64,000 nt of DNA from Candidatus Poribacteria bacterium. GTDB taxonomy: Bacteria; Poribacteria; WGA-4E; PCPOR2b. Positions within the stretch are counted from its first letter, which is position 1, and every line of letters begins with the position of its first letter. This document shows positions 3,170 to 52,424 of the stretch, piece after piece. The translations under genes were made by a program, and so were the position numbers. The notes below the pieces were generated by a model. It saw only the letters and a list, made by a program, of their open reading frames with translations, was not told the origin of the DNA and did not search any database. Location: the NCBI GenBank assembly GCA_965116925.1, contig OZ220744.1, positions 2,729,136 to 2,793,135 of the forward strand. Direction: 5' to 3'.

Positions 3170-4183
3170 TTACCATCCACCTCTTTCCTCAACAAAATCC
3201 TCGACTTCGCGCATTGTCGGCATAAAGTTCGCGCAACCGTGCCGGGTAACAACAATCGCGCCGGTCGCATTGCCCAAGCGGGCAGATCGTTCCCAGCCCC
3301 AGTCTTTCAGGTGTCCATAAATAAAACCGCTGGCGAAGGCGTCCCCCGCACCAAGTGTGTTATAGACCTCGACAGGAAATGGGGCGGCGTTGATAACGTC
3401 TCCATCGGATAGATGAACGTCGGCACCTTCAACGCCGCGTTTCATCACCAGAGCCTTTGGACCACCACTGAGGATTGTCTTAATTGCTGCGTTCACGTCG
3501 CCTTCGATATCGGGATTGGAGATTTGGGAGTGGGTAATAGAGAGTTGTGAAGTGTCGGAGAGGCTTGCTGCTTTGACCTCCTCCTCCGTTCCGAGTGCAA
3601 TATCGATCACTCGCAGTGCGGATCTGGCGACCACACCGAAAGCGCGGGGGTCATGCCATTGGTCTGCGCGGAAGTCGAGGTCGAAGAACACGGTCGTTCC
3701 AACGGATTGGGCGTATTCAGCGGCAAAGAGGTTCGCGCTTCGACTTGGCTCTTTGCTCAGTCCGGTGCCAGAAATAAGCAGGGCGCGGCTATCGGCAATT
3801 GGCGCAGCGAGGACATCGTCGATGGTGAGTTCGATGTCGGCGCAGTTGTCACGATAGTAGACGAGCGGAAATCGGTCCGGCGGCTCGATCCCAAGTACAA
3901 CCGCACTAGTTCGATGTCCCGATTTGTAACAGACAAACTTTGTTTCGACATCTTCATCATTTAGGAATTTGAGGATGAAGTCCCCCACCGGATCTTCGCC
4001 GAGCGCGGTGAGAACAGCGGATCGGAGTCCAAGTCGTCGTGTCCCAACGCTGATATTCGTTGGGCATCCACCGACAAACGCGCCAAAGCTGCCGATTTCG
4101 GGGAAAGGTGCGCCGATGTCATTGGAGTAGAGATCTATTGAACTGCGTCCGATTGCTAAAATATCATAAGTTCGTTCACTCAT
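3170..4183 (-). CDS. PfkB-family sugar kinase (5-dehydro-2-deoxygluconokinase/IolC-like)
   Basis: 'LAIGRSSIDLY' N-terminus, 'GAGDAFASGFIYG' PfkB signature 2, anion hole 'GG'. Start taken at MSERTYD (4183); the ORF track extends to 4219. Confidence 0.8.
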   Translation of the reverse strand: MSERTYDILAIGRSSIDLYSNDIGAPFPEIGSFGAFVGGCPTNISVGTRRLGLRSAVLTALGEDPVGDFILKFLNDEDVETKFVCYKSGHRTSAVVLGIEPPDRFPLVYYRDNCADIELTIDDVLAAPIADSRALLISGTGLSKEPSRSANLFAAEYAQSVGTTVFFDLDFRADQWHDPRAFGVVARSALRVIDIALGTEEEVKAASLSDTSQLSITHSQISNPDIEGDVNAAIKTILSGGPKALVMKRGVEGADVHLSDGDVINAAPFPVEVYNTLGAGDAFASGFIYGHLKDWGWERSARLGNATGAIVVTRHGCANFMPTMREVEDFVEERGGW

Positions 4184-4187
4184 CGGT

Positions 4188-4976
4188 TCACCTTGATACG
4201 TAATCCTTGAATTTTTCACTTTGTTCTGCGAACCGGCAGGTGATGAGAAAGGCGTCGTTTCCGCAAGCGATTAACTGAACGCCTGCATCCGCCCACCGTT
4301 TGCCACTCTCAAAATCGTTGACGTAGCTGCCGAGGACGATTTGAGATTCCTTCGCCTTGGCGATCACCTTTTCGATGCTATCAACAATTAAGGGGTGGTC
4401 GAGTTGGCCAGATATGCCGAGTGATGTCGAGAGGTCATACGGTCCGAGGAAGATTGCGTCGAGTCCATCGGTGGCAAGAATCTCATCGATGTTCTTCACC
4501 GATTTTGCGGTCTCGATCTGCCCGATGATAAAAATTTCCTCATTTGCCTGAAGGGTATATTTCACACCGTCTAGTTTCCGAAAATCGCCGTAATCGGTGT
4601 GTCCGATTCCGAATGCGACTCCCCTATCTCCGTCAGGCGCGTATTTCGCCCACTTTACAACATTTTCGATATCTTCGCGGGATTCCACACGCGGAATCAT
4701 CACGCCGGAAGCACCGGCATCAAGTGCGCGGGAGACAAAATGCCGCTCTTTATCTGGCACCCGTACAATACTAGGGAGGTCTGATCCCCTCGCCGCTCTG
4801 ACGATACGCCCGACTGTTTCCATCGTGAAGGTTGTGTGTTCCATATCTACAATGATGAAATCCGCCCCGGCACTCGCCAAGATGGTCGCAATCTGCGGCA
4901 CCGCAAACTCCATCACAAAGGTCCCAACAATGACTTCTCCCCTTCGTAAAGTTGATTTAATCTGCTTTGCTCTCAT
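4188..4976 (-). CDS. HpcH/HpaI family 2-keto-3-deoxy-sugar-acid aldolase
   Basis: TIM-barrel aldolase motifs 'GTF...', 'VMIPRVES', 'IGQIET' typical of 2-dehydro-3-deoxyglucarate/rhamnonate aldolases. Confidence 0.75.
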   Translation of the reverse strand: MRAKQIKSTLRRGEVIVGTFVMEFAVPQIATILASAGADFIIVDMEHTTFTMETVGRIVRAARGSDLPSIVRVPDKERHFVSRALDAGASGVMIPRVESREDIENVVKWAKYAPDGDRGVAFGIGHTDYGDFRKLDGVKYTLQANEEIFIIGQIETAKSVKNIDEILATDGLDAIFLGPYDLSTSLGISGQLDHPLIVDSIEKVIAKAKESQIVLGSYVNDFESGKRWADAGVQLIACGNDAFLITCRFAEQSEKFKDYVSR

Positions 4977-5092
4977 TTTTTAATTATACCGTCCGCTATT
5001 AGAAATCGCATTTTTGGGAGAGGAATCCCCGATGAGTTCTAAACATAATTTGATGTGATGCTCAGTACAGAAATCTCCTTGACATTAGATAT

Positions 5093-5225
5093 TGGCTCAT
5101 GTAAAAAGAAAGTGCAAAACACGAATCGAAATCGTAGGGGCGGGGTCTCCCCGCCCGCCGTAAGGGTTGGGGGACCCAACCCCTACGAATATTCGGTTTC
5201 TTTGCACTAAATCTTAACATGAGCG
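5093..5225. repeat. MITE-like element family 2, copy a (TIR GGCTCATGTAAAAAGAAAGTGCAAAA around a double-hairpin GC-rich core)
   Basis: Ends 'ggctcatgtaaaaagaaagtgcaaaa' ... 'tttgcactaaatcttaacatgagc'. Core 'cgtaggggcggggtctccccgcccgccgtaagggttgggggacccaacccctacg'. Near-identical copies at 16793-16922 and 26547-26680. Confidence 0.8.
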
Positions 5226-5233
5226 TAGATATT

Positions 5234-7210
5234 TTATCGCCTCGCTGTAAAGAGATTTTCTATTTCCCGTAATAGTTTTCGCGCACCTGCTTCAGCTTTG
5301 GAAGTTCTTTTCATCCTTTTTGAAATCCTTAAAATTCTGTCACAATAGTCGTATGATAGACTCAAATCTCCTGCGGCACGGGCATTTTCTGCGACATTAA
5401 GATAACAGATTGTTGTGCGTGATAGACTTTGGTTCGCGGCCTCCCATAGGTTGGCATGGGCGTAATTGTCCGCTGAAAGGGCGTATAGTCTGCCGGCATC
5501 AGCCCAAGTCTGTTCTCTTTCCAAGGCGTCCGCCTGCATAGCATAGTAAGTCCCTGCTTCCTGTGCACACTGTCGGGCGCGACCATAACGACGGCCGGCT
5601 GTGTAGGCAAGTCGTGCTCGCGCGTAACAATCTGCGCCCGATTCCCAATTCTCGGATTCAATAAAGTTTTGTGCAGATTGTCTATAAAATTCTCCCAGTT
5701 TTTTGTACGCCACCCGGCTCCGCCGACTTTTCCCCTCTTGTGCATATTCTTCAGCCAATTGACGCGTCTGGGCGGCTATCCTCTCATGGGGTGCCTGAAC
5801 CACCTCATGGAGTTTTCGCAGCACAAATTCTGGGGCAGTCTCCTGTGGGTTGAGCGGTTGAAAGGTTAGATCGGAACCGGTGCCAATGTCTGTAGGAAGT
5901 GGGTCTGAACTTGCGACGGAAGACACATCAGTGGATTCACTAGAAGATAAATGATTGTTAAGCAAGGTTCTGAGCTGCGCTACCTCGTCAGACGACAATT
6001 GGTTAATTAATTCAATCATTTCTCTTGCCGTCGAAGGGGGTTGGAGAGGGATCATTAAGTCCGATAAATGTCGAAATATCCAATCCGCTTTTTTGGTTGC
6101 TTTGACACTGCTCAAGTAGAGGCGGTGCGCCTGTTGTACCTCTTGCAATGCCTGCTGTGACTGTGTGCTACCGAGAAGTTGAATGGCTTTATCGTAGTGT
6201 AGATTGACTTGTGTTTCGAGTTGAAGCTGATTCTGTTTTTCTACTTTTGCTTTTTGTTCTTCAGCTATCTCCGATTCAATTTTCTCTGCCGCCTCGGCAG
6301 AGACGCGTAAATCCTTTCTGTGTCCAGATAGCATTGCGCCTTGTATCGCTGGATTTGATTGGTTTATCATTGTATGCCGCACGGCGTCCGCATACCACGT
6401 TTTACGGACATGATTCAAGTCATTGTACAACTCTGAGGCGGTTTGATACCGAGCCTGTGGATCTCGATGCAATGCCCTCTGCAAAATCTCACGCATATCT
6501 TCAGGCAGTTTGTAGTCGAATTCAACCGATTCGCTCTGTTTTCTTACCTGAATTTCAGCTTGCGTTTTTCCTCGAAATGGGAATTTTCCCATAAACATTT
6601 CGTAAAGGATCAGCCCCGTTGAGTAGAGATCCGCCCGATAATCGTAACTTCCTTCGTACTGTTCAGGTGCCATGTATCTTCGCGTGCCCGTAATTGTTCC
6701 TGCATAGTCGGTGCTTGCCTCAAGAATACGCGCGACACCAAAGTCAGAAATTTTCGCTATTTCGTCAGAAGTCAGCAAAATATTCTGGGGCTTAATGTCT
6801 CGATGGATAATGTTCTGCTCATGGGCGGCGATAAGACCGCGGCAAATATCGAGCGCGATATTGATTGCTAAATTGCGGCGAAGAGGCGTCGCAGTGATTA
6901 ACTGACGCAAACTAGGACCGTCAATGTACTCCATAACGATGTAGGCAACGTATTCATCATTGCCGGGTTCAACGGTATGGATGGAAACAATGTTGGAGTG
7001 TCCCCAATTCCGTCCCATCGCGCTCAACTCGGTGAGCAGGTAACGCATTCGTCCCGTGGGATAGATCGATTTGGGCAACACTTTAATCGCAACGGTACGG
7101 TTCGTAAACTCCTCTTTCGCTCGAAAAACAGAGGCAAAACTACCGTGGTTAATCAGTTTTTCAATGCGATATTTCCCTAAGGCCAGTCCGTTTATCTGCA
7201 TATACACCAT
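5234..7210 (-). CDS. Hanks-type Ser/Thr protein kinase with C-terminal TPR-like/helical repeat region
   Basis: 'AIKVLPK' Lys, 'HRDIKPQNILL', 'DFGVARIL', 'APE' motifs. The C-terminal about 300 aa is helical repeats. Confidence 0.85.
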   Translation of the reverse strand: MVYMQINGLALGKYRIEKLINHGSFASVFRAKEEFTNRTVAIKVLPKSIYPTGRMRYLLTELSAMGRNWGHSNIVSIHTVEPGNDEYVAYIVMEYIDGPSLRQLITATPLRRNLAINIALDICRGLIAAHEQNIIHRDIKPQNILLTSDEIAKISDFGVARILEASTDYAGTITGTRRYMAPEQYEGSYDYRADLYSTGLILYEMFMGKFPFRGKTQAEIQVRKQSESVEFDYKLPEDMREILQRALHRDPQARYQTASELYNDLNHVRKTWYADAVRHTMINQSNPAIQGAMLSGHRKDLRVSAEAAEKIESEIAEEQKAKVEKQNQLQLETQVNLHYDKAIQLLGSTQSQQALQEVQQAHRLYLSSVKATKKADWIFRHLSDLMIPLQPPSTAREMIELINQLSSDEVAQLRTLLNNHLSSSESTDVSSVASSDPLPTDIGTGSDLTFQPLNPQETAPEFVLRKLHEVVQAPHERIAAQTRQLAEEYAQEGKSRRSRVAYKKLGEFYRQSAQNFIESENWESGADCYARARLAYTAGRRYGRARQCAQEAGTYYAMQADALEREQTWADAGRLYALSADNYAHANLWEAANQSLSRTTICYLNVAENARAAGDLSLSYDYCDRILRISKRMKRTSKAEAGARKLLREIENLFTARR

Positions 7211-7312
7211 CCTTATTACTGGGTGGATATGGTAGATTGAAGATTAACACAGACCGAAACAACTGTCAATATACAAATATACACGCATCTGTGAGGCAGG
7301 TGATACCTACAG

Positions 7313-7963
7313 TTATTGATCTGCTTTGGCGATTTGCACGGCTTCTACCAACTTTTTCGCGTTCTCTGTCAGGAGATCGAACCGCCCATCAGCAATCACC
7401 TGATTGTTGACGAGTGCGCTGCCAACACCAAGCGCGGCAGAACCTGCCTTGATGAAGTCTCCGGCATTCTCGACACTCACACCTCCAGTGGGAATCATCG
7501 GGATATGCGGCAATGGTGCCTTCACATCTTTGATGTAGCTGGGTCCCACGCCACTTGACGGGAAAACTTTGACATAGTCCGCCCCGGCTTCCCATGCCGC
7601 CAAAATCTCCGTCGGCGTAAATGCCCCCGGCATCACAATTTTACTATATCGGTTGCAGATTTCGATAACATCCGGTTTTGTCACAGGGCTGACAACAAAC
7701 TCCGCACCTGCTAGCATTGCTGCCCGTGCAGTTTCAGCATCGAGTACCGACCCAACGCCTACTAGCACTTCATCACCGTATTGGGCGGCGACATCACTGA
7801 TAACGCTTAACGCATTCGGAGTTGTCATCGTCACTTCAATCAGATCGACACCACCCGCTTTGATTGCTGCTGCAACCTCAATTAATTCAGCGGAGCTATT
7901 CGCACGAATGATGGCGACAACCCCACAGGATTCGACCCGTTGCATCTGTTCCAGTTTCGTCAT
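7313..7963 (-). CDS. eda: KDPG / 4-hydroxy-2-oxoglutarate aldolase (Eda family)
   Basis: 'VVAIIR', 'GGVDLIEVTMTTP', 'GAGTV...' and 'KVFPSS' class I aldolase (Eda) signature. Co-localised with a PfkB kinase and an HpcH aldolase, suggesting sugar-acid catabolism. Confidence 0.8.
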   Translation of the reverse strand: MTKLEQMQRVESCGVVAIIRANSSAELIEVAAAIKAGGVDLIEVTMTTPNALSVISDVAAQYGDEVLVGVGSVLDAETARAAMLAGAEFVVSPVTKPDVIEICNRYSKIVMPGAFTPTEILAAWEAGADYVKVFPSSGVGPSYIKDVKAPLPHIPMIPTGGVSVENAGDFIKAGSAALGVGSALVNNQVIADGRFDLLTENAKKLVEAVQIAKADQ

Positions 7964-8056
7964 TATTTACCTCAATCACGATAGATCGTTCAAAATCATC
8001 TAGAATGCTTCAAACCTTGCTTTTCTGTTGTTTGTATGTGTAGCGGATATTTTTCT

Positions 8057-8794
8057 TCATAGAACGCCAAGCGGCGGTGTTACAACAATTTCGTCAGTCA
8101 CCATGCCAGCCGGTTGCATAGCCACAAAGAGAATAGTCTCTGCGACGTGTTCTGGTTTCAACATCAAATTCAGGTCGGGGTGCCCCTCAATCTCAGTCCA
8201 GAATGGCGTGTCGACCGAGCCGGGGGAGACCGCCGTGACGCGGATATTCTCACTCCGCACCTCCTCCGCCAAAACCTTTGTAAACGCTAGTGCGCCCGCC
8301 TTTGCTGCACAATACGCACTTGAGGCTTTAAATGCAACTTTTGCGGCAATGGACAGCACATTGATAATTTGACCGGATTGACGTGCCAGCATAGAGGGTA
8401 GCACGTATTTGGAGCAGAGATAGGTGCTTTTGAGGTTGGAAGCGACCACCTGCGTCCACACCTCCGGATCTGAATCAGCGATGGTCTCGAAGACCCCGAT
8501 TCCTGCATTGTTCACAAGGATGTCTATTTGACCATAAGTCTCTAGCGTTCGGTTGACCAGCGTTTCTACCGCTTCCGCTTGTATTACATCCGTCGGTACA
8601 ACGAGAGCTTCCCCCCCCTCTGCGCTTACGAGACTGGCAACTGTTTCGAGGTCATGCTGTGTCCGTGCTGCGAGGACAACTTTCGTCCCTGCTCGCGCAA
8701 ACGCCAAAACGGTTGCACGACCGATGCCTCGCGATGCCCCTGTTACGATTGCAACCTTGTCCTTCAGCATCTCCGCCCCCTTTAAGTTGTCCAC
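8057..8794 (-). CDS. Short-chain dehydrogenase/reductase (SDR)
   Basis: 'VAIVTGASRGIG' Rossmann motif, 'NNAG', 'YCAAK' catalytic Tyr-Lys. Likely start at MLKDK (about 8770). Confidence 0.85.
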   Translation of the reverse strand: MDNLKGAEMLKDKVAIVTGASRGIGRATVLAFARAGTKVVLAARTQHDLETVASLVSAEGGEALVVPTDVIQAEAVETLVNRTLETYGQIDILVNNAGIGVFETIADSDPEVWTQVVASNLKSTYLCSKYVLPSMLARQSGQIINVLSIAAKVAFKASSAYCAAKAGALAFTKVLAEEVRSENIRVTAVSPGSVDTPFWTEIEGHPDLNLMLKPEHVAETILFVAMQPAGMVTDEIVVTPPLGVL

Positions 8795-8895
8795 TATGGT
8801 AGATTTTAGAATTAATGAGACACTCCAAATCGGCGCAGTTGCAAACAGCGCCTACCAAACAAGAGACCGGTAGGTGCGGTTTGCAACCGCACCGG
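8787..8895. repeat. MITE-like element family 1, copy A (reverse orientation, one end degenerate)
   Basis: 'tagattttagaattaatgagacactccaaatcggcgcagtt..cagcgcctaccaaaca' is the reverse complement of the copy-B/C terminus. Shares the 'ggtaggtgcggtttgcaaccgcaccg' internal palindrome with copy C. Confidence 0.65.
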
Positions 8896-8971
8896 GCATC
8901 GTTCGGAAATTACCCAATTAATAAATTAATCTTCATGAGTGTGCCTGCTACTTTGAATGTCCAAGCCCTAT

Positions 8972-9568
8972 CTAGATACATCTCATGAACTCCGTCCGTG
9001 TCGAGATTTTATCTCGAAACTCGCCGAGCATCACGTTGGTCATGGTTTGTGAATGCTGCTTCTGTACGCCGCGAACCATCATGCACAGATGCTGTGCTTC
9101 CATGACAACAGCGACCCCAGCGGGATTCAAAACGTCCTGTAACGCTTCCGCAATCTGCTTCGTCAGTCTCTCTTGTACCTGCAAACGGCGGGCGAACATA
9201 TCCACAATCCGTGGAATTTTACTAAGCCCAATGATTTTTTTGCGAGGGATATACCCAACATGACACTTGCCGAAAAATGGTAGCAGATGGTGTTCACACA
9301 GGCTATAACACTCAATGTCTTTGACGATAACCATTTCGTCGTACTCTTCGTTGAAGATAGCATCATTCACAACGTCTTCGACATTCTGGTTGTATCCCTG
9401 CGTCAAGAACTGGAGGGCTTTCGCTGCGCGTTGCGGTGTTTTGATGATGCCTTCCCTCGTTGGTTCTTCGCCAATACTCTCCAACATCTGCGTGTAGATG
9501 TATTCAAGTTTCGGATCAGCGGCAGCTGTTCCGTTGTCAATTGAATCTGCGTGGTAAATTTTCATCAA
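8972..9568 (-). CDS. folE: GTP cyclohydrolase I
   Basis: '[18 protein letters not shown]' zinc-site motif and '[15 protein letters not shown]' FolE signature. Confidence 0.9.
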
Positions 9569-10402
9569 CTAAATTCCGTCTCCGTAGTAATCAAAGTGAT
9601 TCTTCGGGGTTTCTCTCAATCGAAGCCGATGTAGCTGAATCGGCTTCAGATTCGGTTCAATAACCTCCCAGAGCACCTTCACAAAGTTTTCTGAAGTTGG
9701 ATTGAGGTTCTCAAACTCAGGTGTGTCTAGGTTAAGATGCTTATGATCAAATCGGCCGTAGAGCTGCTTCTGCATTGTTTCATCAAGATCCTCTAAATCT
9801 GCAACCATTCCGGTTCTTGGGTCCACCTCACCTTTTATGGTCACTTCAAGTACATAGTTGTGCCCGTGCCCGTAAAAATTGTTACACTTGCCGAAGATTT
9901 CTTCGTTTTCCGCATCGCTAAGTTGTGGGCTGTGCAATCGGTGTGATGCGCTGAATTCGTAAACTTTCGTGAGATAGACCATTTGCCCTTCTCCATAATA
10001 GTCAGCAAATAGGGTTGAATCCTCATACAATCTGACCCGATGTAAGTTTGTCCCTTTTAGATGCGGTTCAATCGCAGACCAAATCTGAATCGCTAAATTC
10101 TCACTTGTCGGTTGCAGGTGTGGGCTATTCGCGAAGGTGGGGTGTTGTACGTTGATATGCTTATGATCATAATAGGCAACAACCTCTTCCTTGAGAACCT
10201 TGTCCAGATCCGTGATATTGATGACCATCCCGTGTTCGGGATTAAGCCTACCTTTGACTGTCGCCTCTAGAACATAGTTATGTCCGTGACTATTTGGATT
10301 GGCGGTCACTCCAAATAGGGCGTAATTTTCCGCATCGCTGAGGTCAGGAATACGATAGTAGTGTGAGGCTTCAAAAGCGATTTGGCGTGTAAGGTAGTGC
10401 AC
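9569..10402 (-). CDS. Tandem-fused double 6-pyruvoyl-tetrahydropterin synthase / QueD-like protein (two PTPS domains)
   Basis: Two repeated halves each carrying 'CxxxHGHNYVLE' (NSHGHNYVLEATV and GHGHNYVLEVTI) plus Glu/His catalytic residues. Immediately downstream of folE. Confidence 0.8.
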   Translation of the reverse strand: MHYLTRQIAFEASHYYRIPDLSDAENYALFGVTANPNSHGHNYVLEATVKGRLNPEHGMVINITDLDKVLKEEVVAYYDHKHINVQHPTFANSPHLQPTSENLAIQIWSAIEPHLKGTNLHRVRLYEDSTLFADYYGEGQMVYLTKVYEFSASHRLHSPQLSDAENEEIFGKCNNFYGHGHNYVLEVTIKGEVDPRTGMVADLEDLDETMQKQLYGRFDHKHLNLDTPEFENLNPTSENFVKVLWEVIEPNLKPIQLHRLRLRETPKNHFDYYGDGI

Positions 10403-10463
10403 GATGACATTCCTTCTCCATGAAACAAGATGCGTTACTCTGCCATCACATTATTGATCTCAA

Positions 10464-10742
10464 TCACAACCTAGCAACCGTATTATCTACCGTTTCGAGC
10501 TGCACACGCATGACCCACTCCCCACCGCCACGAAAATGCACATGCCGCTTCTTCAGCCATTCTACGAGCGTGTCTCGATCCGGTGCTTCCCATTCGCAGA
10601 CCATTCGACCAAGGACTGTATCACACTGTACTTTCAAGCTCTTGACGCCGTCGCTTTCATCATCAATAAATCGTTTGGCGAGCCTTTCTACGTCTTGTCG
10701 TGTCATGCAGGCGATGATATGAGCAGAAACAAATTTGGGCAT
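10464..10742 (-). CDS. Small DUF4242-like (SCO4226-type) protein
   Basis: About 90 aa with an 'MPKF...' start and 'W..H' pattern resembling nickel-binding DUF4242 proteins. Weak assignment. Confidence 0.4.
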   Translation of the reverse strand: MPKFVSAHIIACMTRQDVERLAKRFIDDESDGVKSLKVQCDTVLGRMVCEWEAPDRDTLVEWLKKRHVHFRGGGEWVMRVQLETVDNTVARL

Positions 10743-10866
10743 ATTTGAACTCCAATTATGAGATAAGGAATAAGGTTCATGTCAAAAGACAGTGCAAGAC
10801 GATTAGAACGTGAAACGTGATGCGTGAAACGTGAAAGTAATTTGTTCATTGGTTCATTAATGCTCT

Positions 10867-10900
10867 AGTGAATTTATAGTAGATTTTAGAATTCACTATA
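10867..10900. repeat. Minimal 'solo-TIR' remnant of MITE family 1 (both termini fused, about 30 bp)
   Basis: 'tatagtagattttagaattcactatag' is the family-1 right terminus joined directly to the left terminus (ctatagtgaattc|taaaatctactata). Confidence 0.5.
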
Positions 10901-12890: not shown

Positions 12891-13101
12891 AACAAAAAAC
12901 CTCCTGCTTTAATTTGAAAATTGATATATTCTGCTGTCTGAGTGGGAGATACAGTTGATGCCCCACCTATTCTTTACTTAGGAATCGTAGCATATTTTTG
13001 TAAGAAATACAAGTTTTTTGATAAGAGGTGCGGTATGAACGGTGACAAGAAGGTGCAAGATCGAGGAAACAAGGGCTTGACGGCAGGATTTGGTTAGGGC
13101 G

Positions 13102-13213
13102 CATTGACATTTCTGCGAGGTGCCTTCATCATTTGTTGATGAGCACGCCATCGTAGGGGCGAGGTTTCCTCGCCCAACGGGTTGGGGAACCCAACCCCTA
13201 CGGATTCAGGCTT
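13102..13213. repeat. About 115-bp repeat (TTGACATTT ... double-hairpin core), copy 1 of a direct-repeat pair flanking the lipoprotein gene
   Basis: About 85% identical to 14534-14647, same orientation. The core 'cgtaggggcgaggtttcctcgcccaacgggttggggaacccaacccctacgg' is related to the MITE family 2 core. Confidence 0.7.
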
Positions 13214-13325
13214 AGTCTATTAGGCGTCGAGATGTGAATCTCGACCTACACAAGCACTTATATACCTGTATCAGAATCTTCCGATCCGATGCCCAATGAC
13301 CACAGATCCGCTTGCATGCTTCATA

Positions 13326-14171
13326 CTAAGGCTTTGGTTTTGTCCGAAACGTCATCCGGAAATCTGAGGTCCAACAGCAGCGATCCTGAACAACAATGTG
13401 AATGATGTATACGGTATCGAATTCCAGTAACGGGGCTCCCTCGGCGGGCATTATCTGTGTCTCTTTTCCGATGTTCTCGCCCTCAACTAGATCGCGAGGT
13501 AACCAACGGAGGGACGCGCCCTTATGATCGTAGAGGTCAATCTCATACTTTATGATATTCCTATCCCATCCAAAGCGAATTCCGTTTGCGTTGAGCGGTC
13601 CAGGGTCGATGTCAGCGGCTCCGTCTTGGACGTCGCCCCATACTAGTGTCGGCGGGTCTATATCAAGCCGAAAGCGTTCACCTGATGGCACAACGGGTGG
13701 TCGTTCTTGCATCACGGGCTCTGGTTCCTCAACCGTAGGTCTCTGCGGTCCTGTCCGAAACTGTATCACTGTCTCTACGACATCGCAGTCGGAATTTGGA
13801 GTGTATATCGTAATCTCGTAGTCGGTGTCGTATTCCAACGGATCGCGGGAATCCATGCGCTCTATAACCACAACTTTTGTTTCCTTGCACCTGTGAGCAT
13901 AGGGGGAATTCCAAGTCAGGCGCTTACCGTGCTTCTTATCGTAGACAGAAACCGAATGGTCATAGACAGGTTCCTTAAATACGAATCGAAATCCGCTGAG
14001 ATTCAATGGTTCAGGATTAACATTAACCTCTCCGTGTTTTACGGTGCCCTCTGCGATCAATTTCGGCTGAGGGAGGGCTTCATCTTTCACCACTGGCTCC
14101 TCAACCACAGACGTTTCGGTGTCGCAGCCGAGAATCAGAAGTGCGAACATCATTAGAGCGAGTTTTTTCAT
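13326..14171 (-). CDS. Secreted lipoprotein with two internally repeated beta-rich domains (unknown function)
   Basis: Lipobox 'LLILGC' after MKKLALMMFA (start 14171 preferred over the track's 14276). Internal duplication 'LNLSGFRFVF...YDKKHGKRLTW' / 'LNANGIRFGW...YDHKGASLRWL'. Confidence 0.6.
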   Translation of the reverse strand: MKKLALMMFALLILGCDTETSVVEEPVVKDEALPQPKLIAEGTVKHGEVNVNPEPLNLSGFRFVFKEPVYDHSVSVYDKKHGKRLTWNSPYAHRCKETKVVVIERMDSRDPLEYDTDYEITIYTPNSDCDVVETVIQFRTGPQRPTVEEPEPVMQERPPVVPSGERFRLDIDPPTLVWGDVQDGAADIDPGPLNANGIRFGWDRNIIKYEIDLYDHKGASLRWLPRDLVEGENIGKETQIMPAEGAPLLEFDTVYIIHIVVQDRCCWTSDFRMTFRTKPKP

Positions 14172-14533
14172 GTGATACCTCATGCAGTATAATGCGTAAT
14201 ACGTGATGCGTAAGAGGAAACGGAACGGAGATCTCCGTTCCCTACGAGGGATCAGGTTAAAGCGGGGGCGTCTCAAATAGTTAATTGCAACTCACTTGGA
14301 TTTACTTCAGAAAAAAGCGGGGATGCTTCCCAGAGCGGTGAGGTAGAGGATCTGAGGCGTTGTCGGGGCAGTCGATTGTAGGAGATGCTGATCGGAGCGA
14401 CAGGGCCACTGGGGAGTAGAGGATGTTGGGTTTCACTATAAGATGATTATACGGCGGGATTGTTGAGAAGCAGAATTGCTATTGTCGTTGATAGGGATTT
14501 GTTTGTATCCGTTCAACCCAACCTACGTGCTGC

Positions 14534-14647
14534 GGCGTGTTGACATTTATGTGGGGTGTGTTCGCTACTCGTCGATGCGTGCGCCATCGTAGGGGCGAGG
14601 TTTCCTCGCCCAATGGGTTGGGGAACCCAACCCCTACGGATTTGGCA
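14534..14647. repeat. About 115-bp repeat, copy 2 of the direct-repeat pair
   Basis: See 13102-13213. Confidence 0.7.
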
Positions 14648-16721: not shown

Positions 16722-16792
16722 AAAATTGTCGCAGGTCTCTGTGCAGAGAACACTTCCCTCCTTCTATAACGCTGTTTTGCACATAAAGTTTT

Positions 16793-16922
16793 TGCTCATG
16801 TTAAGATTTAGTGCAAAAAAACCGAATGTTCGTAGGGGTTGGGTCCCCCAACCCTTACAGCGGGCGGGAGACCCCGCCCCTACGATTTCGCTTCGTGTTT
16901 TGCACTTTCTTTTTACATGAGC
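16793..16922. repeat. MITE-like element family 2, copy b (inverted relative to copy a)
   Basis: 'gctcatgttaagatttagtgcaaaa...cgtaggggttgggtcccccaacccttacagcgggcgggagaccccgcccctacg...tttgcactttctttttacatgagcc'. Confidence 0.8.
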
Positions 16923-17040
16923 CAAAGTTTTTGGTTAGTAGGGAACAACGGTCGTTGTTCCCTACAACTTGCGTTATAGTAACATCTGAAATGTCTGCCG
17001 TCAAGTATCAAAGAGTCAACTACTCAACCTTGATTTTATT

Positions 17041-18093: not shown

Positions 18094-18293
18094 GTTGATA
18101 ATTCTCCTTGTTATGAATTAGGATTGTTTTGGCAAGTTAATTATAACATAACATTTGTTAAAAACCAACAAAAAAAGGGGCTTATGTAAAAAGAAAGTAC
18201 AGAGAGCGCAGAAACACCGAGTGTTTATCGTATCGGGGGGGTGTAGGGGGGCAAGATGCCCCGCCTATGATGGGTGTGGAGTGATGTTGTCTC

Positions 18294-20329: not shown

Positions 20330-20435
20330 GTGAATTCAAAAAATAAAGAAACACTTGCGCCACCCCTGTTTGGTAGGCGCTGTTTATAACTGCGCCGATT
20401 TGGAGTGTCTCATTAATTCTAAGGTCCACTATAGT
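20330..20435. repeat. MITE-like element family 1, copy B (short form, about 106 bp)
   Basis: 'tatagtgaattcaaaaaataaagaaacacttgcgccacccctgtttggtaggcgctgtttataactgcgccgatttggagtgtctcattaattctaaggtccactatag'. Termini share CTATAGTG inverted. Confidence 0.75.
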
Positions 20436-24781: not shown

Positions 24782-25201
24782 TTACCTGTTTCCTTTCTTC
24801 GCTTTTTGGGGAACCGCAAATCCTACCATTCCCCGCTTGCCTAACTGCCGCATAAACGTGAACAGCGATGTCTCCGCCTCTTTTCTCGTCATGCGATATT
24901 TGTCACAAAGTTGTTTGACGATATAACCGATGGAATTATGTCCATCGCATAGTTGCCACACAAAGCCTCCGACATCGTCCAAGACAACCACACGGTTGGG
25001 AGGCAGCATAAAGAGTTTCGCTACCAACTTTAACCACAGCGTCTCCTTCTGAGGAATAACCAATGCAACTTCCCCTTTGTCATCGACCTCCCATTCGATT
25101 AACTGGTTGCGTAGCGGCAATGATTTTAAGATGTCCCCTCGATCCAGTTGGGATTCTGGACGTTTCTTGAGTCTGAGTTTGTAAAGGATTGCATTAATCA
25201 T
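24782..25201 (-). CDS. PqqD-family (RiPP-recognition-element-like) protein
   Basis: 'VVLDDVGGFVWQLCDGHNSIGYIVKQLCDKYRMTRKEAETSLFTFMRQLGKRGMV' matches the PqqD/RRE winged-helix pattern. Confidence 0.6.
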   Translation of the reverse strand: MINAILYKLRLKKRPESQLDRGDILKSLPLRNQLIEWEVDDKGEVALVIPQKETLWLKLVAKLFMLPPNRVVVLDDVGGFVWQLCDGHNSIGYIVKQLCDKYRMTRKEAETSLFTFMRQLGKRGMVGFAVPQKAKKGNR

Positions 25202-25250
25202 CGGTCTATTTGGTTCATTGGTACATTAGTTCATTGGTACATTATCCGTG

Positions 25251-25576: not shown

Positions 25577-26506
25577 TTAATGACGCCGGATGCTCGCCGC
25601 AATCTCTTCGGCTGTTCTCGCTGCATCCTGTTTGGCGATCGCTTGGACGACGTAGATCCGATTGGAGTGATGACAGTACCAGAGGTTCACGGCGAAAGTT
25701 TTGCGACGCATAATTTTGTCGATCACCAGCGCGGGACCAAAAGGCACGCGGTCTATGAGACGAGTTTCCTCTCCGATTAACGTTAGCCGTTCTTCTGCAT
25801 CGCCGTTGCTGGATTCAATTGAGAAGCCATATCCACGGATGGCTTTGGCGTATCTCCCTCGAAACCACTCCTCAAGATCTTGTTCCTTGAGCGTAACATC
25901 TGCGACTCCATACCGTTCGATGCTAACTTTTCGACTTCCATCTACGAACGAAAAGAGCAGGTAGCCCGACAACAGTTTATGCTTGTCGAGGCGATACCGC
26001 CGCGGAACTTCTGCATTGAGTTGGTAGGCACTCCAGAGCGTCGCCTGTCCTACCGGGTGATCTTGAACCGACCTAAATATTCGGCTAGTTGTCTCCTTAA
26101 TATTTTCCTTGAGATGTCCCATAACCTGCACGATTGTAATTCGCTTGCAGATATGGCAGTGGAAGATAACGCCGCTCGCCCGAAAATCGCCCTTCCAGTT
26201 GAAGAAAACAACCTCTCTGTCCTCGAAAAACGCCTCATCCTTGATTAGATTGACGTTACGCTGGATGTGCAGGTTTGTATCTTTGCGTTTATAATTTTTG
26301 CGGACGAGCTTGAAATAGTCGTCGAGGACCTTTTGGAGGTCTGGTTTCTTCTGCTTTGATTCAGACCATTTTAACTCAAGGCGCGGCATATCCGCGTCCT
26401 CTAGGCGCAGGTATCCACTTTTATCGTCACCAGATAATCCACTCAATTCCCAATCTGCGGGTAGTTCAAGGGTAATGCCACCCCACCCTAAAGTTGTCCA
26501 TTCCAT
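25577..26506 (-). CDS. Hypothetical 309-aa protein (no recognisable family), first gene of the PqqD/ABC operon
   Basis: Long ORF with codon usage like its neighbours. Tight spacing (17 bp) to the downstream gene. Confidence 0.5.
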   Translation of the reverse strand: MEWTTLGWGGITLELPADWELSGLSGDDKSGYLRLEDADMPRLELKWSESKQKKPDLQKVLDDYFKLVRKNYKRKDTNLHIQRNVNLIKDEAFFEDREVVFFNWKGDFRASGVIFHCHICKRITIVQVMGHLKENIKETTSRIFRSVQDHPVGQATLWSAYQLNAEVPRRYRLDKHKLLSGYLLFSFVDGSRKVSIERYGVADVTLKEQDLEEWFRGRYAKAIRGYGFSIESSNGDAEERLTLIGEETRLIDRVPFGPALVIDKIMRRKTFAVNLWYCHHSNRIYVVQAIAKQDAARTAEEIAASIRRH

Positions 26507-26546
26507 AGTTGGTTCATCGGTACATTAGTTCATTGATTATGAAGTT

Positions 26547-26680
26547 GGCTCATGTTAAGAAAGCGTGCAACAGCAACCGAGTTTTCGTAGGGGTTGGGTC
26601 ACCCAACCCTTACGGCGGGCGGGGAAACCCCGCCCCTACGATTTCGCTTCATATTTTGCACTTTCTTTTTACATGAGCCA
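26547..26680. repeat. MITE-like element family 2, copy c
   Basis: 'ggctcatgttaagaaagcgtgcaa...cgtaggggttgggtcacccaacccttacggcgggcggggaaaccccgcccctacg...tttgcactttctttttacatgagcc'. Confidence 0.8.
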
Positions 26681-26743
26681 TGAAGTTAACGGTTGAGGGC
26701 ATCTAGGGCTTCCACACATGTCACTGATGGTCCCTGACGAATC

Positions 26744-27581: not shown

Positions 27582-29579
27582 TTAGAAAGGCTTGACAATC
27601 ACCGCTTTAGAGACTAGCGCAATTGCAACCGTTCCCATTCCAATCAGTCCGACACCACAGACAAAGCCTGCTGCTAAAACGGGATTAAACATGAACCATC
27701 GTTTCAGTCCGAATATCTTAATCATGTAAAATCGACCGATAATTGCTCCCATTACCTTTGGAAGCATCATGCCTGGATCTGCTCCGATGCCGCCGACGAT
27801 CCCGTAGAACCACATACTCGGCATCTTTGCCACCCAGAGTATGCCGTAGATTGCCAGCGAGGAGGCGAAGCCTGCCGCAACATAGTTGCCACGAATGGCT
27901 TGCAACATCTGGCTGTTTCCGTCACGAAGCGAGGTTTTCCAGAGGCATTCGTTGGTCGCATAGAGGGGCCACCACGTCTGTGCGAATGGGTATTGCGCCG
28001 ACGGAATTGGCGCAACTTTCCAGACAAAATGCCAGACCACAATGCCGGAGACGATCAGGATCGGCATAAGCAGCAATCGTGCAGCGATACTACTGGTGAA
28101 GGTGGTGCCTGTCAATTCGAGGACACGCCAACTTTGGGTGCCACGTCCGTAGTCTTCGTCCGGCAGCGGGACGAACCAGATATCGATCTCCTCATAACGA
28201 CTCAGGATAAATGTAGTTTCGTGGAGATAAGGGATCTCGAAAAGGTCACGGCCGAGGATCCCGTACGTTCGCGCAGTGATGTATGAATTGATCGGGGTGT
28301 ACAAAAAGGCGAATCCGATAAGGAAAACCAGTGGGAAGTTCGGCGCCATATAGGTGTGGACAATATAGATAAAAGTGGTCATCCCAAAGAGCCATAGGAT
28401 TGCCATCAACCAGAGCGGAAAATCGCCGCGTCCCGGTGGTGGTTCTCTTAACGATCTGCCTGCCCCTGTCTGTTCCTGTCGGGCTTGCTTAAACTTTATC
28501 ACCATCGGAATCGAGGCTGCCATGCCAACGAGGGCGAAGCTGAACGATTTTCCCATCCCAAAGCTAATCCAAAAATCGAGACCGTTATATAAGCCTACAC
28601 CGCGGACATCCAAGCCGGGACGCCACTGATGTAAAATCTCTGCGGGATAGAGAAGTCGTGGGTTCAGAATAAACTGGGTAAAGAATGCCCCTGCCAGCTC
28701 CGTCATGATAATGGGAAATGGCAGCACAAAACCGGTGAGTACCGCTCCGAAGTCGGTCGATAATGCGAATACACCTGTTGGCGCGATTTCTTCAATTACA
28801 TTCGTGAAATCGATAAATGGAATTTTCAGGAGCTGTATCGGCGTTGTCATCATCACGCCTGTAAGTGAGGGGATACCGATATAGATAAATCCCCAGATCA
28901 AACCCGCCATAGATCCGACCGAAAAAACCCGCCACCGCCACGTTTCGACACGTCCGGTGGTTTCTGCTAAGGCGGTCGCGCCCTGTGCTTCGATGGGTGC
29001 CATTGGGTAGGGTAGCCGCTCCATATCCGCTGTCAGTCGAAACAGAAAGTAGCCTGCACTGATATAGCGGATCTCCCCCAGCAGCTTGAATATCAGGAAG
29101 AATGCGATGGGCCAGAACCAGTCCATGTGCAAGAGCGAACGCTCTGCAATCGCTATCGCATCTTTCGGCGGCACAATCCAGAAAGGGATTTTATCCGCAA
29201 TTTCATACGACGCAGCTTGTGGCGTATTGATAAAGTATGCGTACCAGATAAAGCCGCGATACTGACCCCCGGACCCGACCGCTGCACCGGTGAGTCCAAG
29301 TAACATATAAAGCTCTTGTCGCCGAGCGGTTGTGAAAGATCGACGGGCTAGCTCTGTGAACAGGATAACTGCGACCCACGGTGCTGCCCCTGCCCCGGAT
29401 TGACCAGAGACGAGGGTCAGGTAGATTGACCCCGGCATCATCAGCAAGCCGACAAAAAGTGCGCCCAAAAAGACCTTCAGCGTTAGACCCGATTCAAAAG
29501 TGCGGATACCACCATCGATGTCGTAGCGCTGTGCCCAAACTTGCCACTCTTCTGCTTGTGTAATTCGTTCTCTTGCCAT
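27582..29579 (-). CDS. Polytopic membrane protein (about 14-16 TM; possible transporter, family not recognised), paralog 2
   Basis: 665 aa, about 70% identical to the product of 30966-32963. Many hydrophobic helices. Conserved N-terminus 'MARER.TQAEEWQ.WAQRYD'. Confidence 0.6.
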   Translation of the reverse strand: MARERITQAEEWQVWAQRYDIDGGIRTFESGLTLKVFLGALFVGLLMMPGSIYLTLVSGQSGAGAAPWVAVILFTELARRSFTTARRQELYMLLGLTGAAVGSGGQYRGFIWYAYFINTPQAASYEIADKIPFWIVPPKDAIAIAERSLLHMDWFWPIAFFLIFKLLGEIRYISAGYFLFRLTADMERLPYPMAPIEAQGATALAETTGRVETWRWRVFSVGSMAGLIWGFIYIGIPSLTGVMMTTPIQLLKIPFIDFTNVIEEIAPTGVFALSTDFGAVLTGFVLPFPIIMTELAGAFFTQFILNPRLLYPAEILHQWRPGLDVRGVGLYNGLDFWISFGMGKSFSFALVGMAASIPMVIKFKQARQEQTGAGRSLREPPPGRGDFPLWLMAILWLFGMTTFIYIVHTYMAPNFPLVFLIGFAFLYTPINSYITARTYGILGRDLFEIPYLHETTFILSRYEEIDIWFVPLPDEDYGRGTQSWRVLELTGTTFTSSIAARLLLMPILIVSGIVVWHFVWKVAPIPSAQYPFAQTWWPLYATNECLWKTSLRDGNSQMLQAIRGNYVAAGFASSLAIYGILWVAKMPSMWFYGIVGGIGADPGMMLPKVMGAIIGRFYMIKIFGLKRWFMFNPVLAAGFVCGVGLIGMGTVAIALVSKAVIVKPF

Positions 29580-30965: not shown

Positions 30966-32963
30966 CTAAAACGGCTTGACAATAACCGCTTTGGAGACTA
31001 GTGCGATTGCAACCGTTCCCATGCCAACAAGCCCGACACCACAGATGAAGCCTGCCGCCAAGACGGGATTATACATGAACCATCGTTTCAGACCAAACTG
31101 TTTGATCATGTAAAACCGACCGATGAGGGCACCCACCACTTTTGGAACCATCATCCCCGGGTCTTGACCGATCCCCCCAACAATGCCGTAGAACCACATA
31201 CTTGGCGCCTTTGCCATCCAGAGCAGCCCGTAAATTGCCACTGAGGAGGTAAAGCCGGCTGACACGTAATCGCCGCGAATGGCTTGTAACATCTGGCTAT
31301 TTCCATCTCGAAGTGAGGTTTTCCAGAGACATTCATCGGTTGCGTAGAGAGGCCACCATGTCTGTGCAAAGGGATACTGTGAGGACGGGATAGGTGCGAT
31401 CTGCCAGATGAAATGCCAGACCACGATTGTCGCAACAATCAAGAGCGGCACCATCAAGGCACGCGCTAGGACGTCGCTGGTGAAAGTTGTGCCGGTCAAT
31501 TCAAGCACACGCCAATGCTGCGTACCCGCTCCGTAATCTTCATCTGGCAGGTGGACAAACCAGATATCAATCTCCTCGTAGCGGCTTAAAATAAACGTTG
31601 CCTGATGGATGTAGGGCAGCACGAAGAGCGGTCGCCCTAACACTCCAAATGTTCGTGCGTTGATATAGGAGTGCAAAGGGGTATACAGAAAGGCAAAGCC
31701 GAGGAGGAAAGAAACGGGAAAGTTCGGGACCATCCGATGCACAATCCATACATACACCACCATGCTGAGACCCCATAAGCCGCCCATGAACCAAATTGGG
31801 AAATCACCACGTCCCGGCGGCGTTTGCAGCGAGCCTCGCGCCCCCGCCTCTTGTTGTTTTTTCCTTCTGAGGCTCAACATGATTGGGATGGACGCTGCCA
31901 AACCGACGGCAGCAAAGCTGAAGGATTTGCCCATGTTGAAACTCAACCAGAAATCGAGGTCATTAAACAGCTTAACGCCACGCATATCCAAGCCCGGACG
32001 CCACTGATGTAGGATCTCCAATGGGTAGAGGATTCGCGGGTTCAGGATAAACTGGGTGAACATCGCTGCAACGAATTCGCTAATAATAAGTGGAAACGGT
32101 AGCACAAACCCCTGTAGCATCATGCCAAAATCTGTCCATAGGGCAAACATCCCCGATGGTGCAAAGCTTTCGATGCTTGGGGTGAAGTCAATAAATGGGA
32201 TTTTCAGAATCTGTATCGGTGTTGACATCATCACGCCTGTGAGCGCAGGAATACCGATATAGAAAAACCCCCAGAACAGTCCCGCCATGGAACCGATTGA
32301 AAAGACACGCCAACGCCATGTTTCGCCCTGACCCGTGGTTTCGGCTAATGCGGTCGCGCCTTGCGCTTGAATCGGTGCCAACGGGTAGGGGAGTCGCTCT
32401 AAATCTGCTGTCAGACGGAACAGAAAATAGCTCGCGCTAATATAGCGAACCTCTGCTAGCAACTTCATGACCAGAAAGATCGCAAGGGGCCAGAACCAAT
32501 CCATATGCAACAGCGAACGCTCTGCAATTGCCATCGCGTCCTTTGCGGGTGCAACCCAATAAGGGACTTTGTCCGCGATTTCATACGACTGTGCCTGCGG
32601 CGTGTTGATAAAGTAGGCGTACCAGACAAACGGATAGGCACGATATTGGATTCCAGAACCGACCGCCATGCCGGTTAGTCCCAGCAAAATGTAAAGTTCT
32701 TGTCTCCTTGCAGTTGTGAAAGACCGGCGCGCCAATTCTGTAAATAGAATGACCGCCACCCAAGGCGCAGCACCTGCGCCCGACTGACCTGCAACTAAGG
32801 TCAGATAGATTGACCCCGGCATCATCAATAGACCGATGAAGAGTGCACCTAGAAAGACTTTCAAGGTTAAGCCGGACTCAAAGGTTCTTAAACCGCCTTC
32901 AACATCATAACGTTGTGCCCAAGCTTGCCACTCTTCTGCTTGCGACACCCTTTCTCTTGCCAA
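30966..32963 (-). CDS. Polytopic membrane protein, paralog 1
   Basis: See 27582-29579. Collinear over the full length. Confidence 0.6.
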   Translation of the reverse strand: MARERVSQAEEWQAWAQRYDVEGGLRTFESGLTLKVFLGALFIGLLMMPGSIYLTLVAGQSGAGAAPWVAVILFTELARRSFTTARRQELYILLGLTGMAVGSGIQYRAYPFVWYAYFINTPQAQSYEIADKVPYWVAPAKDAMAIAERSLLHMDWFWPLAIFLVMKLLAEVRYISASYFLFRLTADLERLPYPLAPIQAQGATALAETTGQGETWRWRVFSIGSMAGLFWGFFYIGIPALTGVMMSTPIQILKIPFIDFTPSIESFAPSGMFALWTDFGMMLQGFVLPFPLIISEFVAAMFTQFILNPRILYPLEILHQWRPGLDMRGVKLFNDLDFWLSFNMGKSFSFAAVGLAASIPIMLSLRRKKQQEAGARGSLQTPPGRGDFPIWFMGGLWGLSMVVYVWIVHRMVPNFPVSFLLGFAFLYTPLHSYINARTFGVLGRPLFVLPYIHQATFILSRYEEIDIWFVHLPDEDYGAGTQHWRVLELTGTTFTSDVLARALMVPLLIVATIVVWHFIWQIAPIPSSQYPFAQTWWPLYATDECLWKTSLRDGNSQMLQAIRGDYVSAGFTSSVAIYGLLWMAKAPSMWFYGIVGGIGQDPGMMVPKVVGALIGRFYMIKQFGLKRWFMYNPVLAAGFICGVGLVGMGTVAIALVSKAVIVKPF

Positions 32964-33205
32964 ATTTATGCTCCTTTCAGGACGCGAAGCGTAAAACGTA
33001 AAACGTGAAACGTGAAGGGAATGGGTAAATACAGGTTTTTAATGAAACACAGTTGTAAGATGTGTTCATGAGCTCAACCCTTCATTGGTATATTGCTTGG
33101 TTACCGATTTCTTAAAATCTTACATAACCACGAATCCACGATAACGAAATAGGGAGATTTGAAGCAATCTTTTCTCACGTTTCACACATCACGTTTCACG
33201 ATCCT

Positions 33206-50885: not shown

Positions 50886-51055
50886 TATAGTGAATTCAAA
50901 AAATAAAGAAACAGTTGCGCCACCCGGTAGGTGCGGTTTGTAACCGCACCGCATCGGCGCAGTTAGAAACAGCGCCTACCAAACAGAAGAACGGTCGTTT
51001 CATTTTCCTAACCGCACCGGTTTGGCGTGTCCCATTAATTCTAAAATCTACTATA
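50886..51055. repeat. MITE-like element family 1, copy C (long form, 170 bp)
   Basis: Same termini as copy B plus an internal 'ggtaggtgcggtttgtaaccgcaccg...gcgcagttagaaacagcgcctaccaaaca' segment shared with copy A. Confidence 0.75.
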
Positions 51056-52007: not shown

Positions 52008-52424
52008 TCAACTTCGTTCGGTCGCACACGTCGGACACAAGCCGTACAACTCTAGTTTGTATCCCTTCACTTCAAATCCCCGCGCTTTGAACTGCTGCGT
52101 ATTAAGCGGTTCGGAGAGCGGTGCGTCAACATCAAGTAACCGATCACAACCTGTACAGATCAGGTGGTGATGGTCTGTGAGGTTTGCGTCAAAGCGCGCA
52201 TATTCGCCATGCTCCACCTTCCGAATCAGACCGAGTTCGACCAACACGCTTAATCCCCGATAGACAGTGCCCAAGCTGATGTGTGGCAGACGAACCTTTA
52301 CCGCATCATAAACCTCTTTCGCGCTTGGGTGGTGTTGCTGCTCTCGCACCTCTTCAAGGATAATCTGGCGTTGACGGGTAAATCGATAGCCTTCTTGCCT
52401 GAGCCCTTCGCTTAACTCTTTCAT
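52008..52424 (-). CDS. Fur-family metalloregulator (possibly PerR-like given the adjacent katG)
   Basis: 'HPSAKEVYDAV...ISLGTVYRGL' winged helix, 'HHH' and CxxC...CxxC. Confidence 0.8.
   Translation of the reverse strand: MKELSEGLRQEGYRFTRQRQIILEEVREQQHHPSAKEVYDAVKVRLPHISLGTVYRGLSVLVELGLIRKVEHGEYARFDANLTDHHHLICTGCDRLLDVDAPLSEPLNTQQFKARGFEVKGYKLELYGLCPTCATERS

Follow-up and report, generated by a model that had tools for sequence, protein, structure and literature searches.

A GC-rich double hairpin enclosed by terminal repeats recurs in a 64-kb stretch of a Candidatus Poribacteria genome (referred to as the window, i.e. the whole stretch of DNA that was analysed) and raises the question of what kind of element it represents. 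A first-pass annotation regarded it as a MITE with an elaborate, possibly RNA-active core, and regarded a related pair of direct repeats as the edges of a gene cassette. We compared the window with related Poribacteria sequences and consider it highly probable that the element is a composite of selfish DNA, namely an IS1595-derived Poribacteria MITE in which a pair of GTAG-tagged REPs is nested. Each layer is of a known kind, and the element is neither a new RNA gene nor a gene cassette.

The window contains three complete copies of the MITE (Table 1), which are 131–133 bp in length and show pairwise identities of 95.5, 89.5 and 88.0%, in line with the identity of more than 85% claimed for three copies at these places. 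The copy at 16793 had correctly been described as inverted; the copy at 26547 is likewise inverted relative to that at 5094, which had not been stated. The two ends of the MITE are not identical, end A being GGCTCATGTAAAAAGAAAGTGCAAAA and end B being GGCTCATGTTAAGATTTAGTGCAAA. A search of the window for the terminal-repeat pattern GGCTCATGTWAARA-N4-GTGCAA gave 8 matches where 0.01 would be expected, and these include both ends of all three copies. All three complete copies have a perfect 8-bp target-site duplication (TSD) at their flanks. All MITE copies in the window are intergenic and lie between minus-strand genes, 0–118 nt past the stop codon of the upstream gene. A degenerate copy had been proposed at about 18181–18280 and is indeed present there, retaining end A and a decayed core but no end B, and a truncated remnant at 10774, which had been overlooked, was additionally identified.

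Table 1. Positions of the MITE copies, their cargos and target-site duplications, and of the associated features in the window
Feature	Position	Strand	Remarks
MITE copy 1	5094..5225	+	132 bp; end A leading; adjoins the kinase gene 5234-7210(-) at its stop codon
TSD of MITE copy 1	5086..5093 and 5226-5233		TAGATATT; 8 bp, read from the sequence
Cargo of MITE copy 1	5133..5187	+	GTAG-outside REP hairpin pair
MITE copy 2	16793..16923	-	131 bp; in the spacer between the recA and hydantoinase genes
TSD of MITE copy 2	16785-16792 and 16924-16931		AAAGTTTT
Cargo of MITE copy 2	16831-16884		Pair
MITE copy 3	26547..26679	-	133 bp
TSD of MITE copy 3	26539-26546 and 26680-26687		ATGAAGTT
Cargo of MITE copy 3	26586-26640		Pair
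Decayed MITE copy	18179..~18280	+	End A (3 mismatches) and degenerate GC palindrome, without end B; ~50% identity
Truncated MITE remnant	10774..10825	+	End A and heptamer-repeat cargo
Stand-alone unit 1	13091..13206	+	Leader ..GCGCATTGACATTT.. and REP pair GTAGGGGCGAGG../..CCCAACCCCTAC; same position in L177 and L185
Stand-alone unit 2	14528..14642	+	Same leader and REP pair; 12 nt from the hydantoinase stop codon
Lipoprotein gene	13326..14171	-	Lipoprotein signal MKKLALMMFALLILG followed by C; context, not part of the element
Other GTAG-type palindrome	14222..14245		GGAACGGAGATCTCCGTTCCCTAC; left arm GGAACGGAG
Runs of 7-8-nt units	10838-10874, 25199-25243, 26490-26542, 52424-52468, 53815-53867, 60123-60190, 60731-60844, 62580-62631 and others

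The window copies are recent insertions, as revealed by the orthologous regions of three relatives, L070 (chromosome OZ242335.1), L177 and L185. L070, which is orthologous to positions 3923–10825 of the window with 86–91% identity, lacks the copy at 5094 and contains a single TAGCTATT where the window shows the TAGATATT-flanked element. Conversely, L070 has its own 196-bp MITE flanked by AACATAAT, and the window contains a single AACATAAT about 50 bp away. The closest relative, L177, in which the hydantoinase is 95% identical and synteny extends from recA to HpcH, also lacks the copy at 5094; it has its own 112-bp MITE, bounded by TCGCGTTT, at a third position in that spacer, and the window shows a single TCGCATTT there. 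The copy at 16793 is missing at the orthologous site of both L177 and L185, and L177 has a complete 138-bp MITE (L177:14886-15023) of which the remnant at 10774–10825 is the truncated orthologue. These reciprocal empty sites, together with the truncated shared copy, indicate that the family has been inserting and decaying over the divergence time of these genomes. Two other sources of comparison were tried and set aside: a metagenome scan with the hydantoinase yielded three close relatives only, which were too divergent and not syntenic, and the orthologues P0003, P0004, P0005 and P0006 showed no downstream synteny.

Two long elements, L068:2580-3564 (985 bp) and L095:5458-6445 (988 bp), share ends A and B with the MITE; approximately 26 nt are common to parent and MITE at each end, including the A/B asymmetry. 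In the parent, a zinc-ribbon/HTH ORF precedes one with a match to DDE_Tnp_IS1595 (PF12762, E = 1.2e-18; 68 bits, cutoff 27), and the score of the parent for the N-terminal IS1595-type zinc ribbon (PF12760) was 19.7 bits, under the cutoff of 25.4. IS1595-family elements are approximately 0.7–1.1 kb in length and generate 8-bp target duplications (ISfinder family descriptions), and both the parent length of 985–988 bp and the 8-bp TSD of the MITE fit this norm. Parentage by an ISL3 or IS6 element, which had been considered on the basis of TIR similarity and 8-bp duplications, was dropped because the ~985-bp elements match DDE_Tnp_IS1595. The designation of the repeat as a MITE is thus borne out by its terminal repeats, its 8-bp duplications, an IS1595-family parent with the same ends and the empty orthologous sites.

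In both parents (L068:2560-3556, L095:5510-6392), the transposase frame is broken at the same A7 run, GGGGAAAAAAAGTGA, and the second ORF is in the +1 frame. This split may represent programmed slippage/frameshifting or a homopolymer error of the long-read assemblies. The two parent IS copies show no clear 8-bp duplication. Because no parent was found in the 64-kb window, both parents coming from outside the window's own genome sample, and because the ORF is split, only the insertion polymorphisms speak for present activity in this genome.

The copy count and the insertion-site analysis revealed that the window copies belong to a large family. The terminal pattern was found in more than 108 stretches by an exact-pattern scan that covered one genome per species, a count that is a lower bound, and all of the named records among the matches listed are Candidatus Poribacteria MAGs. 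Six terminal-repeat matches in viral contigs were attributed to chance, as they are unpaired singletons in contigs of 37% GC. By pairing + and - ends in the matched loci, we defined 84–85 elements, which range from 91 to 290 bp and have no coding capacity; the most frequent size is 91–93 bp, and further classes are present at approximately 104–137, 148, 172, 178, 197–210 and 221–289 bp. Perfect 8-bp duplications flank 39 of the 84 paired-end copies and duplications with one mismatch flank another 16 (55 of 84 with one mismatch or fewer), the duplicated targets being A+T-rich (76%). The commonest form of the MITE (34 of 84 copies, 91–96 bp) does not contain the GC core: the 91-bp chassis consists only of the two ends and an A+T-rich central hairpin, GAAACCGAGTTTT-caagaa-AAAACTCGGTTTC. 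In the literature searched, we found no MITE described for Candidatus Poribacteria and no Poribacteria-specific report of REP, MITE, IS200, IS1595 or REPIN, and this MITE/REP-pair family of Poribacteria appears not to have been described previously.

What, then, is the GC core? In the copy at 5094, it consists of hairpin a (GTAGGGGCGGGG-TCT-CCCCGCCC), the spacer GCCGTAA and hairpin b (GGGTTGGG-GGA-CCCAACCCCTAC). The core sequence had been slightly mis-transcribed in the first-pass annotation and actually reads CGTAGGGGCGGGGTCTCCCCGCCC-GCCGTAA-GGGTTGGGGGACCCAACCCCTACG; both of the hairpins and the 5-bp outer stem assigned to it exist. The two hairpins are different GTAG-tagged REPs in inverted orientation, with their tags outside. 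Such hairpins are abundant in the window, where we identified 33 GTAG-headed hairpins of at least six sequence classes, against 0–4 in shuffled sequences (approximately 2 expected). GTAG-outside pairs, with spacers of 3–34 nt, numbered 13. The GTAG REP superfamily, as catalogued by Di Nocera et al. (2013, PMC3733652), includes HH dimers with tags outside, heterodimers and clusters, with several families per genome and locations downstream of genes, and REP dimers embedded in the centre of longer palindromes are described there for Anabaena variabilis and Halothiobacillus neapolitanus. The core had been thought unusually elaborate for a REP. It is instead a standard GTAG-outside HH heterodimer that matches the catalogue; we left the core hairpin without a numbered GTAG family. 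A HIP1/cyanobacterial origin was rejected, the HIP1 sequence GCGATCGC showing no enrichment and the host being a member of the Poribacteria.

Nor is the core a defining part of the MITE; it is one of several interchangeable cargos in its centre. One or more GTAG-headed hairpins, of several sequence types, are present in 23 of the 84 MITEs. The cargos comprise a single GTAGGCGGGGCATCTTGCCCCGCC hairpin (L007, L039), the CGGGG/TTGGG pair (the three window copies, L004, L108, L092), a GCAGG/GCAACC pair (L070, L074), TCCCGAT-nn-ATCGGGA units and heptamer runs. In the subfamily found in the window, the pair took the place of approximately 16 nt of the chassis centre and is thus not a clean insertion. 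The chassis/core junctions of the window copies are identical to those in other MAGs (L004, L108), which points to a single capture and subsequent transposition of the composite element. The TCCCGAT-nn(n)-ATCGGGA palindrome was also seen repeatedly within MITE arms, within the loops of REPs and within the spacers of REP pairs, so that repeats are nested at three levels (L071:3103-3182, L087:5745-5820, L070:1294-1489, L083, L027).

The REP pair is also independent of the MITE. Core-type pairs occur outside it, either alone or, in L035, tandemly arrayed with a period of 84 nt, and in seven places the REP pair is accompanied by a recurrent leader, CTAGG..GTTGACATTTATGTGRRG. The hairpin GTAGGGGCG(G/A)GG-N3-CC(C/T)CGCCC was detected in 67 IMG/VR stretches (L192-L258), on contigs of 46–67% GC, as singletons or, with other partners, in pairs whose GTAG tags lie outside; these stretches contain no MITE ends. 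Several of these contigs, which are filed as viral, hold many copies of the GTAGGGGCG(G/A)GG-type hairpin. Either this REP type is widespread beyond Poribacteria, or the IMG/VR contigs are bacterial or prophage DNA.

With regard to the fold, RNAfold predicted very stable structures for the cores (z = -6 to -13), namely a single long hairpin for each of the three MITE cores of the window and a Y shape for the stand-alone copies. The two models were compared on 11 distinct pairs, related and pattern-selected sequences from which the spacers had been taken out. Under the Y model (a 5-bp outer stem plus two 8-bp hairpins), 99.6% of the cells are paired, a value reached by 2 of 500 shuffles, and two compensatory pairs were found, one changing from G-C to A-U in four sequences and the other from U-A to C-G in one. 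Under the long-hairpin model, the share of paired cells is 92.6%, no better than in shuffles, and a G-to-A variant disrupts the structure. The stems are entirely different between hairpin classes, yet each is self-complementary. The Y-shaped double hairpin, as originally drawn, is therefore the better description of the core, albeit on the thin basis of two compensatory pairs among related, pattern-selected sequences. A Y of this kind needs no more than two self-complementary REPs whose flanking tags, GTAGGGG and CCCCTAC, are complementary to each other.

Two readings that differ from a composite of MITE and captured REP pair need to be considered for the core itself. According to one of them, the double hairpin is original and integral to the MITE, and the stand-alone pairs, once labelled a subfamily of it, are relics that have lost the terminal repeats. 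The decayed MITE at 18179 shows that ends can be lost, and the same chassis/core junctions recur in the three window copies, L004 and L108. This reading is nevertheless very improbable, because neither the commonest 91–96 bp MITE nor the ~985-bp parent has a core, the stand-alone pairs share a conserved leader of their own and show no trace of the MITE, the hairpin type is common in unrelated contigs without MITE ends, and other GTAG hairpin types sit at the same position in the MITE. The other reading takes the GC core as a functional RNA (a terminator, a stabiliser of mRNA 3' ends or a small structured RNA produced from the promoter-like leader) that has been spread by the MITE and maintained by selection. 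The stability of the folds, the maintenance of both local hairpins by compensatory changes and the location of all copies in short spacers between co-directional genes, just past stop codons, are consistent with it, as is the conserved TTGACA-containing leader of the stand-alone units, for one of which alone the promoter scan gave a weak sigma-70-like match (10/12); elsewhere in bacteria, REPs affect mRNA stability and termination (PMC3733652). On the other hand, Rfam recognised only the tmRNA in the window at the gathering threshold, and no family overlaps the element up to E values of 5. The hairpins are not followed by a T-tract and were not called by the terminator scan. Moreover, some MITE copies point one way and some the other with respect to the flanking genes; the copies are absent from orthologous sites whose neighbours encode 85–95% identical proteins, and are thus recent rather than conserved; unrelated cargos occupy the same position in the MITE; departures from pairing (G-T/A-C) affect opposite strands in different copies; and covariation is equally expected of DNA hairpins recognised, on single strands, by a transposase. 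We therefore regard the RNA-level function envisaged by the first-pass annotation as unlikely. The core gave no positive evidence of an RNA-level role, and an incidental effect on transcript 3' ends seems plausible by analogy with the REPs of other organisms.

A third reading concerns the two leader-plus-pair units that flank the lipoprotein gene, an assignment that is upheld by the lipoprotein signal, and takes them as the recombination boundaries of a mobile lipoprotein cassette. The direct repeats of approximately 115 bp exist, aligning over 13098–13206 and 14534–14642, and are 84% identical overall (71% in the leader and 98% in the core), but they are stand-alone units of leader and REP pair rather than a MITE subfamily. 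That they flank the gene in the window, and that the gene is missing from L177, the closest relative, would suit a cassette. In L177, the rhodanese gene is next to the hydantoinase gene with one leader-pair unit between them; the gene is present in L185, so that the absence from relatives holds for only one of the two. Yet the second unit is missing from L185, where the gene is present. L177, which is devoid of the gene, retains 150 bp equivalent to positions 14222–14371 of the window, i.e. sequence between the repeats, which recombination from repeat to repeat cannot explain. The variable lipoprotein segment is approximately 964 bp in length (window 13258-14221, L185:8560-9600; L177:12218-12256 is without it), and in L185 a 9-nt direct repeat, GGAACGGAG, marks its edges. 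This 9-nt repeat corresponds to the left arm of another palindrome, GGAACGGAGATCTCCGTTCC, which L177 retains intact. The second 115-bp repeat constitutes an indel of its own, restricted to the window lineage, in which 115 nt are present in place of 23 unrelated nt of L185, starting directly after a ..CCCAACCTACG hairpin remnant common to the window and L185. A cassette bounded by these repeats can hardly be reconciled with such an arrangement. The 115-bp repeats are unrelated to the gain or loss of the lipoprotein gene, and the variation of the segment points to a palindrome-associated indel.

The relationship between the two units deserves a separate remark. Unit 2 is 93.6% identical to the first-position unit of L177 (L177:12307-12415) as opposed to 84% to unit 1 of the window, and unit 1 is 87–88% identical to its positional orthologues. 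This suggests that unit 2 was copied from an ancestral-like template or that gene conversion took place.

On the composite reading, the outer layer is a non-autonomous MITE derived from an IS1595-family IS of Candidatus Poribacteria. Its ~26-bp terminal repeats would be recognised by a DDE transposase supplied in trans by the ~985-bp parents, and its insertion into A+T-rich 8-bp targets would give rise to the target duplications. The inner layer is an inverted GTAG-tagged REP pair, a BIME/REPIN-like HH heterodimer, which presumably replaced approximately 16 nt of the chassis centre once and has thereafter been copied passively at each transposition of its MITE subfamily; the pair also exists independently of the MITE as the ~115-nt unit with a conserved leader, as at 13091–13206 and 14528–14642. 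Any effects on neighbouring genes, such as hairpins at the 3' ends of transcripts, would be incidental.

How the REP hairpins themselves move is a separate matter. GTAG REPs are generally tied to RAYT genes, and some REP-bearing species are without the gene (PMC3733652). Strict and loose HUH/Y-motif scans and phmmer with E. coli RayT detected no RAYT/Y1 ORF in Poribacteria DNA (approximately 1.1 Mb) or in REP-bearing contigs (0.64 Mb), and in L035 the 2.4 kb that separate two REP units contain housekeeping genes only. Because RAYTs are usually single-copy and approximately 1.7 Mb were sampled, this non-detection says little either way. We infer that the REP hairpins are, or formerly were, mobilised on single-stranded DNA by a putative RAYT. 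The MITE has passively spread one captured REP pair. Because at least four independent cargo types are present, it is conceivable, although rather doubtful, that the central hairpin of the MITE is a preferred landing site for REPs and that the MITE serves as a DDE-driven, RAYT-independent REP shuttle. If this is true, such a shuttle would be a second route by which REP families spread, perhaps in genomes without RAYTs. In a weaker variant, the leader-plus-pair units would form a family of small structured RNA genes driven by promoters.

Bacterial MITEs derived from IS elements with DDE transposases include Correia/NEMIS, RUP, Nezha and MITEAba12. The Poribacteria element resembles IS1595-type and other DDE MITEs in being short and non-coding, with imperfect terminal repeats of ~26 bp, an 8-bp TSD, many intergenic copies and insertion polymorphism, and it resembles IS1595 MITEs in having a full-length parent that shares the ends and encodes a DDE_Tnp_IS1595 domain. 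It differs from the known DDE MITEs in its unusually modular centre, which accommodates at least five kinds of palindromic cargo, and from the known IS1595 MITEs in that the parent transposase is split at A7 in both copies seen. IS1397 and ISKpn1 are IS elements that target REPs, the IS sitting inside a REP or BIME. As in those cases, a DDE-type element is physically close to REP hairpins, but the arrangement is the reverse: the REP pair is inside the MITE, and the TSDs are ordinary A+T-rich 8-mers and not REP halves.

The inner layer shares many features with the GTAG REPs of PMC3733652, i.e. GC-rich palindromes of 20–25 nt, an unpaired 5' GTAG, a short variable spacer, the occurrence as singletons, dimers and clusters, several classes per genome, and intergenic locations mostly downstream of genes. 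Unlike RAYT-linked GTAG REPs, the Poribacteria pairs had no RAYT linked to them within the ~1.7 Mb analysed. Unlike the partners of a REPIN (Bertels and Rainey 2011, PMC3116915), those of the Poribacteria pairs do not form a single long hairpin, as indicated by the lower pairing of the long-hairpin model. In contrast to the REP dimers that lie in longer palindromes, the embedding palindrome is here a DDE-type MITE with TSDs, and hence a second, unrelated transposition system, by which the REP pair is demonstrably spread.

Several other repeats and features were observed in the window. A second MITE-like family is present at 8793–8882, 20366–20435 and 50953–51055, in which TATAGTGGACCTTAGAATTAATGAGACACTCCAAAT.. 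is joined to GTAGGCGCTGTTT.. and GTAGGTGCGGTTT.. hairpins; it varies between relatives, with extra copies in the orthologous spacers of L070 and L177. Runs of 7–8-nt units, (GGTTCATT)n and (CACGTTT/CACGCAT)n, are found in many intergenic regions, often upstream of genes (Table 1), and also as MITE cargo (L042, L070:3529-3657, L177:14886-15023). A long ORF region at 50–1500 contains approximately a dozen tandem repeats of 123–132 nt with 60–80% identity and looks like a repeat-domain protein. Adjacent paralogous genes of approximately 2 kb (27583–29579 and 30967–32977) share 74–80% nucleotide identity, and L078 is ~69% identical to both. A 300-nt direct repeat (55411–55710 and 56228–56527, 817 nt apart) is 89% identical. 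The tmRNA gene is located at 61937–62272 (RF00023, 136.7 bits), and ARAGORN gave no call for it.

In this study, we describe for the first time an abundant MITE family that is evidently active, together with its IS1595-type parent, in the uncultured sponge-symbiont phylum Candidatus Poribacteria, whose genomes also carry a rich population of GTAG-tagged REPs. These repeats account for much of the intergenic indel variation between closely related MAGs and are a likely cause of assembly breaks and mis-annotated small ORFs. They represent no new class of system; they do offer, through TSDs and empty sites, a clean case of one selfish element (the REP pair) hitchhiking in another (the MITE), which is relevant to the spread of REP families.
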